Part shown: one piece after another, positions 10,038-15,017 of the stretch | Layout of the letters: every line of letters begins with the position of its first letter | How positions within the stretch are numbered: position 1 is the first letter of the stretch | NCBI RefSeq assembly: GCF_029504745.1 | Contig: NZ_JAQFIQ010000023.1 | Span: forward strand, 5,836 to 37,835 | Direction of reading: 5' to 3' | Length of the DNA stretch: 32,000 bases | Source: Breznakia sp. PF5-3 | GTDB taxonomy: Bacteria; Bacillota_I; Bacilli_A; Erysipelotrichales; Erysipelotrichaceae | Program-made: the position numbers and the translations under genes | Notes under the pieces: model-generated | What the model saw: the letters and a program-made list of their open reading frames with translations, nothing else | Databases searched by the model: none | Told to the model about the DNA's origin: nothing

Positions 10038-10086
10038 AAGTTTATTTTATATTGAATAGTATTTGCATTATATTTAGATGAAGAAA

Positions 10087-10126
10087 GACGCAAATGCAAC
10101 GTAAAATTTTACATTGCATTTGCGTC
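10087..10126. terminator. 40-nt near-perfect palindrome / hairpin downstream of lysS
   Basis: GACGCAAATGCAA (10087-10099) pairs with TTGCATTTGCGTC (10114-10126). The centre GTAAAATTTTAC is itself palindromic. No T-run follows (ccctt). Confidence 0.5.
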
Positions 10127-10159
10127 CCTTAATAATAAGTGATGTGGTTGTGATTACAT

Positions 10160-10203
10160 AAAAAAATACAGTTTAGTGATAAAAAGATAAACTGTATTTT
10201 TTT
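10160..10203. terminator. bidirectional rho-independent terminator
   Basis: A7 run, ATACAGTTTA (10166-10175), a 12-nt loop, TAAACTGTAT (10188-10197), then a T7 run. Confidence 0.7.
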
Positions 10204-10325
10204 GTGAAATATGGTAAGGGAAATTAATTATGTTAGGGTAATATATAATAAAGGGAAAAGCAAATAAGTATTTAATTGTTATTATAAGGCTGTAATTATA
10301 TAATTAGAGAAAAGGATGTGTTTAG

Positions 10326-11267
10326 ATGAATAAAAAAGAAATTGTAGTTTTTAAAGATAATGACTTTGAAATAAATGTTAATTTAGACTTGGGGGAAGAA
10401 ACGGTATGGTTGACGCAGAAAGAGATTTCTACTTTATTTGGAAAAAGTCAATCAACTATTTCTGAGCATATTGCCAATATATTTAAAGAAGGTGAATTGG
10501 ATGAAATAGGCAATATCGGAAAAACCGATATTGCAAATTCTGATAAGCCTGTAAAAGTATACAACCTAGATGTTATAATATCGGTCGGATATAGGGTTAA
10601 GTCAAATCGAGGAGTATTATTTCGGAAATGGGCGAATTCGATTTTGAAGCAATATTTATTAGATGGCTATGTAATAAATGAAAAAAGAAAAGATAGTATA
10701 AATTACTCACAGCTTTTTGGATTATTAAATAATTTAAGTAATGCAGGTGTGATAAATAATATAACAAGTGAAGGATTATTAACTTTTTTAAATTCATATC
10801 AAAGAGGATTAGAAATATTAGATAATTATGATCATCAAACACTAATAATTCCAAAGGGATTGCAAGATACATATAAACTAACTTATGAAGAGTGTATAAA
10901 AGTTATTAGAGAATCTAGTTTTAAAGATAAAGGGGATTTGTTTGCAATAGAAAGAGATAATTCATTTAGCTCAAGTATTCAAACAATTTATCAAACATAT
11001 GATGGAATAGAATTGTATCCAACACTTGAGTTAAAGGCAGCAAATTTACTTTATTTAGTTACAAAAAATCATAGTTTCATAGATGGTAACAAACGAATTG
11101 CAGCAATTATGTTTTTATATTTTTTGAATAAAAACAATCATTTAGAAGACAAAGGTATTAAACGGATATCAAATGAAACATTAGCAACTTTAACAATATT
11201 AATTGCTTCATCAAAGCCAGAGGATAAGGAAAGTATAATTAATTTGATTATGGTATTAATAGCGTAA
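10326..11267 (+). CDS. RhuM-family N-terminal region fused to a Doc-type Fic (death-on-curing) domain
   Basis: The N-terminus carries RhuM/COG3943 hallmarks (VWLTQKEISTLFGKSQSTISEHIANIFKEGEL, YNLDVIISVGYRVKSNRGVLFRKWA). The C-terminus has the Doc-type Fic motif HSFIDGNKRIAA (HxFxDxNKR). Flanking helices align by eye to P1 Doc. Confidence 0.8.
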   Translation: MNKKEIVVFKDNDFEINVNLDLGEETVWLTQKEISTLFGKSQSTISEHIANIFKEGELDEIGNIGKTDIANSDKPVKVYNLDVIISVGYRVKSNRGVLFRKWANSILKQYLLDGYVINEKRKDSINYSQLFGLLNNLSNAGVINNITSEGLLTFLNSYQRGLEILDNYDHQTLIIPKGLQDTYKLTYEECIKVIRESSFKDKGDLFAIERDNSFSSSIQTIYQTYDGIELYPTLELKAANLLYLVTKNHSFIDGNKRIAAIMFLYFLNKNNHLEDKGIKRISNETLATLTILIASSKPEDKESIINLIMVLIA

Positions 11268-11351
11268 TAGTAAGTGTAACAAATAATTGCAAGAAACAAT
11301 ATTTGTATATTAGGAAGCATTAATGTGTTTTTTTATATTTCTTATTCTTTA

Positions 11352-11360
11352 TGCTATAAT
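11352..11360 (+). promoter_or_regulatory. extended -10 promoter element upstream of the WGR gene
   Basis: TGcTATAAT at 11352-11360, with a weak -35 (TTTATA) 17 nt upstream. The AT-rich context makes this tentative. Confidence 0.4.
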
Positions 11361-11401
11361 TACGATGAATTTTAATTACGTATTAAAAAGGAGAAAGATG
11401 T

Positions 11402-12886: not shown

Positions 12887-12902
12887 AAAAATGGTCTTAT
12901 TG

Positions 12903-12947
12903 AAACGACGCCAAAGACTTGGAACACCAAGAAAGGGGTCGTTTTTA
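12903..12947 (+). terminator. nested-hairpin terminator after the WGR gene
   Basis: Outer stem AAACGAC (12903-12909) pairs with GTCGTTT (12938-12944), followed by TTAT. Inner stem CTTGG (12918-12922) pairs with CCAAG (12927-12931). Confidence 0.6.
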
Positions 12948-13028
12948 TATGAAACTAGCAATAGAGGATAAAACAAAATTATATTAAGAAATGAAAACAT
13001 GATGCTTTAGAAAATGCAGATAATTATA

Positions 13029-13057
13029 TTGTATGATTTAGAACCTTTTTTTAGAAT
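13029..13057 (+). promoter_or_regulatory. putative sigma-A promoter for the 586-aa gene
   Basis: TTGTAT (13029-13034), a 17-nt spacer, then TAGAAT (13052-13057). Confidence 0.45.
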
Positions 13058-13118
13058 GATTCGTCTAAGGAGTAGATGCTACTAAGAGCATAAATCAATG
13101 AAAGTTAGGAGATAAACT

Positions 13119-14879
13119 ATGCAAGAAAAATTAAATGTAGAGAATTTAGAAAAATTTGTGGATGAGTTGATTGAGAAAATAGAGAAAAAGAATATTAGCA
13201 TTAATAACTATGGTAGTTATTATAGTGGACTCTATAATGATTATATGGAAGGCTTCGATGAAGATGTATTGACAGATAATTTAATTCAAACAGAAAAAGG
13301 AGAATCTATACTAAGAAAGTTAATTAATCACTTATACTTATATAATACTTCTAGTTATGCATTGCAATTGTGGAAGAATGATGAGGTGCAAGCTGGTGAA
13401 AGAGCTGCTTATAGATTGGCAGAGAAGAATATCAGTGATGTTGATTTATATGCGAAGTTAGTTAGCTCAATGGATTTAAATCATGAAGTTAATCAATGTG
13501 AGGATGCAATGCATCTATATGAAAAGTGGGGGTATAATAAAAACACTTATTCACTTTTGATAAGTAGAATTGTAAATCTAGGACAATATGGAGATGAGTT
13601 TATTGAGGAAGTTGAAGAGGATGTACTTGTTGCTTTGGAGGAATATGAAGATTATGCTTATTTCCGTAAACTCTTAATTAATATGGGTGGAGGAGATTTA
13701 CAGGGTTATATGTTTGGTGAAATAATATTGAGCAAGGTTATTGAAAAAACGACAGAGGGTGATGACAATATCTTACAAGGATATTTAAATAAAGCAATGC
13801 GAGAAAGTGAGCTATCAATAGATACTATAACTGTATTATCAGATTATATTGATGAAAAAAGTCTTGATGATAGTATTGCTTATATAAAAGAGAGAATGGA
13901 TAGTGGGTTTTTTGAAAATGATGATGAATTAAATATCATTATAATTAACTACTTTAATCGTTATGTGAAAGATAAATGTACTGCTCTTAGTACAATTAAA
14001 AAAATGGAAAACTTATTAACGCTTATGAGTCCTGAGAGTAGAGAAGCTTATGCTAAAGAAATAGAAACGTGCATAGAGAATTTTTATAATAATAAAAAGC
14101 AAGCATTAGAGAAACTACATCAAAGTTTTAATAGTAATTCAGAAGATTACATTTATACAGTGGAGGAAGCTAAAAACAAGGGTTTAGAAGTAGAAGAAGA
14201 TATTACGAAAGTTTTTGAACAAGAGTTTCTTGTTATAGTAGGAAGCCCTAATTGTATATTAAATCCAAATAGTGTAGATTATATCCATCAGGCGTTGCAT
14301 GAATTGAATGCGAGAAAAGATGATTTATTGAGTGAAACAGGGATTAAGTTGTTGCATTCGGGTGGTTTTTTGGTTAGTAAATTTGATGAATGGGTAATTG
14401 ATTATAAAAGTTTCCCTTATGAAATGTATTGTGTAATTTATAAAAAGGGTGAGAAACCTCTAGTCTTTTTTGGAAAATATCATTATATAGAATTAGCCCT
14501 TTCTTGTCAGTCTAATTGGCCATCAACGCAAGCGGAAAAAGATAAATTAAGAGATGAATATTTTGCAGGCTTAGGTGATAAAAAGCGTAATGATGTAGAG
14601 TGGTTGGAAGCAGAAGATTATTTTGAAAGTTTTGAAGGTGACAATCAGGCTAACGTGAGTTGGTTTTTATGGGATTATGTAATCGATGAATATGGCGAAA
14701 AGTTTTTAGACAGTTTGGATAGAAACGATGGAATTATCGGAACTACAAAGGATGTCTATCGTGCGATACTTGCAGATCGTCATAAAAAAGTTGCAGTATT
14801 AGAAATGTTGGTAAACAAGTTGATAATAGAACAACCAGAACATAAAGAATACTGGGAAAATAAGTTGAGTAAATATTAG
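13119..14879 (+). CDS. hypothetical protein, paralogous to the C-terminal region of the upstream WGR protein
   Basis: Long ORF with an AGGAG RBS. An ungapped 68-aa hand alignment to the upstream protein gives about 20 identities, including LW..E.QAG, D.NHEV and WG[FY].K.T. No signal peptide, TM segment or catalytic motif was recognised. Confidence 0.8.
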   Translation: MQEKLNVENLEKFVDELIEKIEKKNISINNYGSYYSGLYNDYMEGFDEDVLTDNLIQTEKGESILRKLINHLYLYNTSSYALQLWKNDEVQAGERAAYRLAEKNISDVDLYAKLVSSMDLNHEVNQCEDAMHLYEKWGYNKNTYSLLISRIVNLGQYGDEFIEEVEEDVLVALEEYEDYAYFRKLLINMGGGDLQGYMFGEIILSKVIEKTTEGDDNILQGYLNKAMRESELSIDTITVLSDYIDEKSLDDSIAYIKERMDSGFFENDDELNIIIINYFNRYVKDKCTALSTIKKMENLLTLMSPESREAYAKEIETCIENFYNNKKQALEKLHQSFNSNSEDYIYTVEEAKNKGLEVEEDITKVFEQEFLVIVGSPNCILNPNSVDYIHQALHELNARKDDLLSETGIKLLHSGGFLVSKFDEWVIDYKSFPYEMYCVIYKKGEKPLVFFGKYHYIELALSCQSNWPSTQAEKDKLRDEYFAGLGDKKRNDVEWLEAEDYFESFEGDNQANVSWFLWDYVIDEYGEKFLDSLDRNDGIIGTTKDVYRAILADRHKKVAVLEMLVNKLIIEQPEHKEYWENKLSKY

Positions 14880-14924
14880 GGATAGTAAGAAGGTATTGAT
14901 ACTTGGTTTAGAACAGTGTCTAGT

Positions 14925-14961
14925 AAAAAAACCAGAGTTTCACTAGAAATTCTGGTTTTTT
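14925..14961. terminator. bidirectional rho-independent terminator (586-aa gene and convergent dehydrogenase gene)
   Basis: A7 run, ACCAGA (14931-14936), a 14-nt loop, TCTGGT (14951-14956), then a T6 run. Confidence 0.75.
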
Positions 14962-15017
14962 GAATACGACTAACTATATAGAGTTTATTTTTGAATTTGC
15001 ACTCTAATTATTAGTAT

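Follow-up and report, generated by a model that had tools for sequence, protein, structure and literature searches.

In this analysis, a block of three plus-strand genes, g1, g2 and g3, which follows lysS in a 32,000-nucleotide (nt) window of the genome of Breznakia sp. PF5-3 (Erysipelotrichales), was examined using profile searches and a comparison with the loci of its homologues. The original prediction had taken the three genes for a single defence or toxin-immunity cassette. Our results point to a different reading, towards which we lean with considerable reserve: the 5-kb interval between lysS and the dehydrogenase gene that follows the block appears to be a small variable slot that holds independently acting accessory genes and not a three-component system. 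The genes themselves have a conflict-like character, and in this respect the prediction is supported in part. The first gene, g1, is an ordinary member of an already known family of candidates, for which an anti-phage role is predicted. The products of g2 and g3 have in common an all-alpha domain of about 155-190 residues, for which DOM is used here as a working name. What is new is modest and consists of the delimitation of the DOM family and of its links to WGR and Imm11.

Results

The three genes were found together only in the source species. Exact-protein look-ups with LysS and g1 returned the block only from its contigs; the g3 product is 100% identical to the NCBI protein M2475_001364, and GCA_029504775.1 carries the same contig. 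Outside Breznakia sp. PF5-3, two of the three genes were not seen at one locus in any of the loci that were fetched, and the relatives that could be compared comprised three loci with g3 and a single one with g2. One of them, L004, has in common with the window the 3' end of lysS, a palindrome of 40 nt and g3 together with the 17 nt before its start, and a split SLFN/AlbA_2 gene occupies the place of the second hairpin after lysS, g1 and g2. This gene (L004 673-1535) is divided into open reading frames (ORFs) of 234 amino acids (aa) and 54 aa and may be a pseudogene. In L003, which comes from a Coprobacillaceae metagenome-assembled genome, the homology is limited to g3 (window 13107-14883), which there has an Imm11 gene on one side and an ABC transporter on the other, while L006, a contig of 1.5 kb, has a second g3 copy with a different upstream ORF. 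Genes like g1 or g2 were absent from all three of these loci, and the best g2 homologue, P0001 in L001 (41% identity), had no g1- or g3-like neighbour. The co-occurrence of the orthologues, which had been set in advance as the test of the cassette, was thus not observed elsewhere, within the limits of the small number of relatives at hand, and a terminator-like hairpin separates g2 from g3. For lack of co-occurrence, g2 and g3 were also ruled out as antitoxins of g1. The g3 orthologues in L003 and L004 are 71-82% identical to g3, and the ratio of nonsynonymous to synonymous substitutions (dN/dS) was 0.19-0.22, alike for DOM and the C-terminal part. A dN/dS of about 0.2 signifies that g3 is a functional gene that has been kept without g1 or g2.

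The description of g1 as a toxin-like RhuM-Doc fusion was well founded. In Pfam, a RhuM domain (PF13310, E 2.8e-18) and a Fic domain (PF02661, E 9.6e-11) were found in one polypeptide, and the NCBI name for the family is 'virulence protein RhuM/Fic/DOC family protein'. However, the view that the block matches no named system does not hold for this gene, as g1 matched the PADLOC candidate PDC-S23 (PDLC04965) at full length (residues 1-312 on positions 1-323 of the 327 of the profile, E 1.8e-114). Neither g2 nor g3 is covered by a PADLOC model. The Doc-type motif HSFIDGNKR aligns with HCFYNANKR of 9vzc, a death-on-curing protein and the closest PDB sequence; Doc kinases are recognised by a Lys where the Fic motif has its second Gly. 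The TIGR01550 DOC_P1 model scored 35.7 bits, which is under its cut-off of 38.65, and between positions 10038 and 10325 there was no plus-strand ORF of at least 20 aa that could be a Phd-like antitoxin gene; g1 is therefore not part of a classical Phd/Doc pair. Using tblastn, homologues of g1 were found on 118 plasmid records, and the N-terminal RhuM part alone was found in many satellite phages of Streptococcus. The identity of g1 to the homologues from the plasmid and phage collections was 37-47%. In three annotated plasmid regions with g1 homologues, the neighbours were unrelated to g2 and g3 and included no WGR or DOM. Fusions of RhuM and DOC were previously described in restriction-modification and defence neighbourhoods by Anantharaman et al. 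2013 (PMC3710099).

The presence of a WGR domain in g2 was confirmed (PF05406, residues 2-69, E 5.8e-15, 55.6 bits compared to a gathering score of 22). In the profile of the g2 family, the WGR part matched PDB 2ra8 with an E of 6.6e-16 and the WGR of PARP3 with 7.5e-4. When the PDB was searched with profiles built from the sequences of DOM and of the g2 and g3 families, nothing besides WGR was revealed. A BLASTP comparison of g2 and g3 gave 30% identity over 164 aa (E 6e-12), and hhalign of the two families gave a probability of 96.7% for residues 7-161 of g3 against 79-232 of g2 and nothing elsewhere. Since the match is confined to one segment, calling g3 a paralogue of g2, as had been done, is correct for one domain only and fails outside DOM. 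Full-length relatives of the g2 type were limited to P0001, P0006 and P0007, all of which have WGR, DOM and a longer C-terminal region. The C-terminus of g2 is about 120 residues shorter than in these three homologues, and the 232-bp spacer after g2 is too small for the missing part; g2 is thus a C-terminally shortened version. Relatives of the g3 type were P0004, P0005/P0155 and P0156. The g3 orthologue of L003 has an in-frame TAA (L003 1645-1665, about 13800 in the window) exactly at the boundary between DOM and the C-terminal region, with a Met restart a few codons further on and a dN/dS of about 0.2 in both halves; possible causes are a recent nonsense mutation, an error in sequencing or a natural division into two proteins.

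The DOM domain is recognisable by the motif W..DE.QAG...D(L/I)(D/N)HEV...WG...GQ(H/Y)G, which in the family alignment becomes W..DE.QAG...A..LA...K....Y...L.(S/T)(N/M)DLDHEV.Q..D...I..KWG.C.ET..L...R....GQHG.E. Among 57 members of the family, G93, A101, D119 and H122 (g3 numbering) were nearly invariant. An exhaustive HMMER profile search of 1.84 billion cluster representatives (E<=1e-3) found 206 representatives with DOM. All but three of the best 150 matched only in the DOM region and 109 of the same 150 were no longer than 320 aa; the typical member is solitary and about 250 aa long. The word-indexed searches returned two or three matches per single gene (for two genes) and four for the DOM profile and, because these are so few, any claim about rarity depends mostly on the exhaustive one. 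The family has members in Flavobacteriia, Chitinophagia, Bacteroidia, Gammaproteobacteria, Leptospira and Erysipelotrichales/Coprobacillaceae, and its loci include those of Shewanella, Oceanospirillales, Prevotella and Dysgonomonas. No DOM was found by tblastn in plasmids and phages or in a scan of viral contigs, and a metagenome scan with the g2-family alignment revealed only other WGR proteins, none with DOM. Neither Pfam nor NCBIfam has a name for the DOM region of g2 and g3 or for ten typical members. Positions of about 380-518 of the 551 of DUF6138 (PF19635) were matched by eight of 72 DOM members; one of them, P0072, which matched best with 41 bits, was above the cut-off of 25 bits.

Fusion partners of DOM were WGR (five of the 150 best representatives, in addition to g2), TPR, Ank, WD40, BRCT and Imm11. 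P0147 combines DOM with BRCT and Ank, and P0072, P0104, P0131 and P0151 seem to have a degenerate DOM, a canonical DOM and a WD40 propeller, to which P0131 adds Ank repeats; these five proteins resemble sensor-scaffold architectures and include no NTPase. An AlphaFold2 model of residues 1-230 of g3, which was based on eight sequences, was all-alpha with 13 helices and a predicted local distance difference test (pLDDT) score of 65.7. The model of the full g3 was unusable (pLDDT 47). Foldseek against the PDB and BFVD found only generic TPR/ARM-like helical repeats (E>=0.05, TM<0.42), and hence no fold was assigned.

An analysis of the loci of the DOM genes showed several links to predicted immunity families. 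P0092, a single example, contains Imm11 (residues 9-199, a Pfam hit on the record) and DOM (242-367) in one polypeptide, and in L003 the Imm11 gene is located directly upstream of the g3 orthologue. P0001 and P0092 (L001 and L050) come from the same two runs, SRR29082293 and SRR29082275, on contigs of about 50% guanine plus cytosine (G+C), and probably belong to one organism that is unrelated to Breznakia and carries both architectures. In Leptospira borgpetersenii (L009), a DUF4240 protein and a WGR-TPR-Imm11 protein are encoded within 2.5 kb after the DOM gene, and the distance between a WGR protein and the DOM gene is 4.5 kb in L. gomenensis. The Leptospira loci, with DOM, DUF4240, an unknown 216-aa protein, WGR-TPR-Imm11 and more WGR matches (L009 11376-14361, L020 14792-15682), look like a small cluster of WGR-X genes. 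Nothing was found in the literature on DUF6138 and DUF4240. A SUKH/SMI1_KNR4 protein is encoded downstream of the DOM gene in L008 (three ORFs away) and in the syntenic L010 (two ORFs away), and L008 also has tandem DOM paralogues.

The positions of the three genes in the original prediction were exact; they are given in Table 1 together with the other features of the block.

Table 1. Features of the block between lysS and the dehydrogenase gene (positions in the window; z scores from folding compared with shuffled controls).
Feature	Position	Strand	Details
Loop-less 40-nt palindrome, left edge of the variable slot	10087..10126	.	-23.3 kcal/mol, z -9.6; arms 95% complementary
Second hairpin, A-run then stem then T-run, bidirectional-terminator-like	10153..10210	.	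z -5.9; 23-nt arms, 91% complementary
g1, 313-aa RhuM-Fic/Doc fusion	10326..11267	+	RhuM/helix-turn-helix (HTH)-like about residues 1-125; Doc-type Fic about 193-308
Doc-type Fic active-site motif HSFIDGNKR, g1 residues 249-257	11070..11096	+	read from translation
g2, 494 aa: WGR (2-69), DOM (about 69-265), C-terminal region	11402..12886	+	profile searches
DOM of g2	11606..12196	+	hmmsearch E 1.6e-49 against the family profile
g2 DOM motif LWFDEETQAG	11864..11893	+	located in translation
g2 DOM motif DINHEV	11969..11986	+	located in translation
g2 DOM motifs RWGFRKET and SQHGIE		+	located in translation
Terminator-like hairpin with T-run between g2 and g3	12893..12945	+	-21.6 kcal/mol, z -4.7
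g3, 586 aa: DOM (1-200) and C-terminal region of about 360 aa with almost no relatives	13119..14879	+	
DOM of g3	13119..13718	+	hmmsearch E 4.9e-48
g3 DOM motif LWKNDEVQAG	13368..13397	+	
g3 DOM motif DLNHEV	13473..13490	+	
g3 DOM motifs KWGYNKNT and GQYGDE		+	
Bidirectional terminator common to g3 and the convergent octopine-dehydrogenase-like gene	14921..14966	.	z -6.1 and -3.8 (two strands)

All of the strong hairpins that had been read from the sequence were supported by folding: the two after lysS fold far better than the shuffled sequences, the terminator that closes the block folds on both strands, and the WGR gene is followed by a hairpin with a T-run. The hairpin after g1 was at the level of chance (z -0.7). 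An AGGAG-like ribosome-binding site was read before each of g1, g2 and g3. Contrary to the proposal that each gene has its own promoter, promoter-like matches showed no excess over chance (38 seen compared to 34.3 expected). The palindrome occurs once in the window and is kept at 85-89% in L004 (658-704), just 5' of a different cargo gene, AlbA_2, whose start is about 30 nt downstream. It (GACGCAAATGCAACGTAAAA/TTTTACATTGCATTTGCGTC) is without a T-run and bounds the variable slot on its left side in both the window and L004; instead of being a terminator, it might serve as an operator or as a site of recombination. The block was indeed richer in AT than its surroundings (28.5% G+C compared to 33.3% in the rest of the window). 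The G+C fraction was 0.270 for g1, 0.282 for g2 and 0.306 for g3, compared to 0.337 +/- 0.024 for the other genes, so that g1 and g2 are more than two standard deviations under the other genes and the lowest in the window. A deviation in codon usage was not found: both the G+C of the third codon positions (GC3) and the synonymous codon usage of the block were ordinary, and the AT-richness therefore reflects the amino-acid composition and is no evidence of recent transfer. The flanks of the block contained no direct repeats and no att-like sites, and a recent transfer is unsupported by any of these features.

The block is an accessory islet inside a housekeeping region. Upstream of it lie tilS, hpt, ftsH, hslO, dusB, a minus-strand xylose-isomerase-like TIM-barrel gene and lysS, and downstream the convergent octopine-dehydrogenase-like gene, a LysR regulator, purA, mscL and an NlpC/P60 gene, followed further on by an EPSP-synthase-family gene, prfA, prmC, feoB and metK. 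The string from tilS to lysS that had been described is present in its genes but not as an uninterrupted run, as the TIM-barrel (AP_endonuc_2) gene at 7295-8170 separates dusB from lysS; the longest ORF of this gene (start 8419) reaches well past the called gene of 291 aa. No tRNA genes, integrases or transposases were found in the window, in agreement with the original prediction as regards the last two, and no Rfam families were found in the block. The core housekeeping neighbours and the lack of tRNA genes, integrases and transposases show that this is an isolated 5-kb islet and is not located in a defence island. The neighbouring genes thus support the accessory character that had been proposed for the block. 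The defence-island setting finds no support in these flanks, and the DOM family at large is likewise without defence-island context.

Discussion

How the three genes are related to each other has to be decided between a slot with independent cargo and a single defence or toxin-immunity cassette, in which g1 would be the effector, g2 the WGR sensor and g3 a partner, with g2 and g3 sensing nucleic acid and controlling or neutralising the Doc toxin. The cassette would agree with the adjacency and common orientation of the genes, the strong hairpins at both ends and the place of g1 among the PADLOC candidates, and it would also account for the low G+C that sets g1 and g2 apart. However, no co-occurrence beyond the source species was seen in any fetched locus, PDC-S23 is catalogued as a single-gene candidate that g1 matches at full length, purifying selection maintains g3 orthologues where g1 and g2 are absent, and the terminator-like hairpin between g2 and g3 and the lack of a PADLOC model for both speak against it as well. 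Judged by the criterion of co-occurrence, the cassette is largely refuted, and we consider it very improbable. The slot of independently acting genes, which we prefer, is itself open to objections: the relatives are few, and in the sole comparison at the same locus, that of the window with L004, g1 and g2 are jointly present or jointly absent, so that these two may be linked, which favours the cassette. The same is true of the weak hairpin between these two genes, owing to which they may be co-transcribed. Moreover, no experimental paper on PDC-S23 was found in the literature, and the family is a computational candidate only. A narrower arrangement, in which g2 and g3 form a paralogous pair independent of g1, for example a heteromer via DOM, seems to us rather improbable. 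Their tandem position, the domain in common and their complementary truncations (g2 is without the C-terminal extension of about 120 aa and g3 is without WGR) would fit such a pair, as would an analogous gene order in E. coli and the tandem DOM genes of L008, but the g3 orthologues of L003 and L004 have no g2-like neighbour, P0001 has no g3-like neighbour, the regions beyond DOM are not homologous and the two genes are separated by a terminator-like hairpin. In addition, DOM is unrelated to the DUF4132 of the E. coli protein YehI; it was rejected as a relative with an hhalign probability of 0.13 and no DUF4132 match in Pfam.

As for the function of DOM, the strongest lead so far is toxin binding in an immunity-type role, which is suggested by the fusion to Imm11, the Imm11 and SUKH genes next to or near DOM genes and the tandem DOM genes. 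For Imm11, a family found in polyimmunity proteins, immunity against AHH/HNH/SHH nuclease toxins is predicted; together with SUKH it belongs to the predicted immunity families of polymorphic toxins, which are typically directed against nuclease toxins and form polyimmunity proteins or loci (Zhang et al. 2012, PMC3482391). We tentatively suggest that DOM may be a toxin-binding domain of such a polymorphic-toxin/polyimmunity network, linked to Imm11, and, equally tentatively, that g2 and g3 might be a tandem orphan-immunity pair that guards Breznakia against the nuclease toxins of its neighbours. The toxin-immunity character that had been proposed for the block would then survive in the association of DOM with a predicted immunity family, while the tie of g2 and g3 to g1 would not. 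Several observations weigh against this suggestion. Toxin genes (LXG, WXG, RHS or similar) were seen neither in the window nor beside a DOM gene at the loci examined, most DOM genes are in a housekeeping context, immunity-type neighbours were present at only about three or four of 14 DOM loci, no family recurred in more than three among the 100 neighbours of DOM genes at 13 loci, and the structural models were of low to medium confidence with no fold match. Furthermore, the D, H, E, Q and R residues that hardly vary across phyla fit an enzyme or the pocket for a ligand better than a fast-evolving immunity protein. The main rival possibility is that DOM is an enzyme or a domain that binds a small ligand, and works on DNA or on a DNA-damage or ADP-ribose-type signal, with g2 and g3 as accessory proteins of the stress or DNA-damage response and not of conflict, and with WGR in g2 and BRCT in the relatives bringing DOM to broken or modified DNA. 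It would explain the invariance or near-invariance of W85, G93, D119, H122, E123, Q126, R150 and Q156, and it is consistent with the WGR fusions, the BRCT fusion of P0147, the WGR genes near DOM genes in two Leptospira species and the chromosomal location of the family, which was absent from the plasmid and phage collections that were searched. Support also comes from Deinococcus, in which the genes DR2173 (WGR) and DRA0166 (DUF4132) belong to the DdrO radiation/desiccation regulon and are strongly induced; MolR was reported as a member of the LexA regulon (PMC8533742). Nevertheless, we regard this explanation as unlikely: no SOS/Cheo box was found near g1-g3 (three loose matches in the window compared to 3.6 expected), there was no sequence or fold match to a solved enzyme, no repair genes were among the 100 neighbours of DOM genes, and the Imm11 fusion and adjacency would be left unexplained.

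Under the slot reading with an immunity role for DOM, the genes would act as follows. By analogy with Doc of phage P1, which is a kinase acting on EF-Tu, the Fic domain of g1 with its HSFIDGNKR motif may phosphorylate EF-Tu, a translation factor, and bring growth to a halt. As a Phd-type antitoxin gene is missing, the RhuM/HTH-like N-terminal half of g1 could be its built-in regulatory or sensing part. DOM would bind and neutralise incoming protein toxins, probably nucleases, in the manner of an 'orphan immunity' protein, and g2 and g3 would form a tandem pair on this same domain, to which g2 adds WGR and g3 its unique C-terminal region. The WGR domain of g2 might tether DOM to DNA, where nuclease toxins act.

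A comparison with known systems showed that g1 does not differ structurally from PDC-S23, in which the RhuM N-terminus is likewise followed by a Fic/Doc C-terminus and which occurs as a single gene in varied contexts. With Phd/Doc of phage P1, g1 shares the Fic fold and the Doc-type HxFx(D/N)(A/G)NKR motif; however, the P1 system has an upstream Phd antitoxin, whereas the Doc domain of g1 is fused to a RhuM region of about 190 aa. The likeness of DUF6138 to some relatives of DOM is partial and distant, and g2 and g3 themselves have no Pfam match there. The DOM loci resemble the polyimmunity systems (PMC3482391) in the DOM-Imm11 fusion, the Imm11 and SUKH neighbours, the tandem DOM genes and the fusions to Ank, TPR and WD40, but differ from them in that no toxin gene was seen, in their mostly housekeeping context and in the strongly conserved polar motif. 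WGR has no occurrence in Zhang et al. 2012 (PMC3482391). The WGR-LRR (leucine-rich repeat) proteins (the STM4015 family, 2ra8 and Leptospira LIC_11051) have an N-terminal WGR with a variable module, made of repeats or helices, after it, as in g2, in which, however, DOM takes the place of the LRR; the annotation of LIC_11051 as fibronectin-binding concerns the LRR part. The match of g2 to NF047464 covers residues 3-151 and reaches 55 bits compared to a family cut-off of 1000.

For scans of genomes for new defence systems, these results are a caution that adjacency and toxin-like or sensor-like domain names are insufficient to call a defence system, as the three-gene module was dissolved by the comparison with one relative and a handful of homologue loci. 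What they add is an uncatalogued domain family with about 200 cluster representatives in at least four phyla and a sharp conserved motif, for which the Rosetta-stone link to Imm11 and WGR gives the bacterial WGR-X proteins a testable functional hypothesis. If the immunity role is true, DOM would be a new family in the interbacterial-antagonism repertoire of Bacillota, Bacteroidota, Spirochaetota and Gammaproteobacteria, and bacterial WGR-X proteins in general would be DNA-tethered anti-toxin devices. If the DNA-damage explanation is true, DOM would represent a new WGR/BRCT-coupled activity.

It is also worth mentioning that accessory genes with WGR, DOM or Imm11 directly follow an aminoacyl-tRNA synthetase gene in three unrelated cases. 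In the window, lysS (8550-10037) precedes the block, in L050 tyrS (2-646) precedes the Imm11-DOM fusion, and in E. coli (L036 1-1334) metG precedes yehF/yehH/yehI. The E. coli cluster is similar to the block in that a WGR protein (yehF/yehH, MolR) is followed by a paralogue without WGR (yehI, DUF4132) after the synthetase gene, but it also has MoxR/VWA genes (yehLMPQ), equivalents of which are absent in the window. The position next to a tRNA-synthetase gene may be a coincidence or a preferred insertion context.

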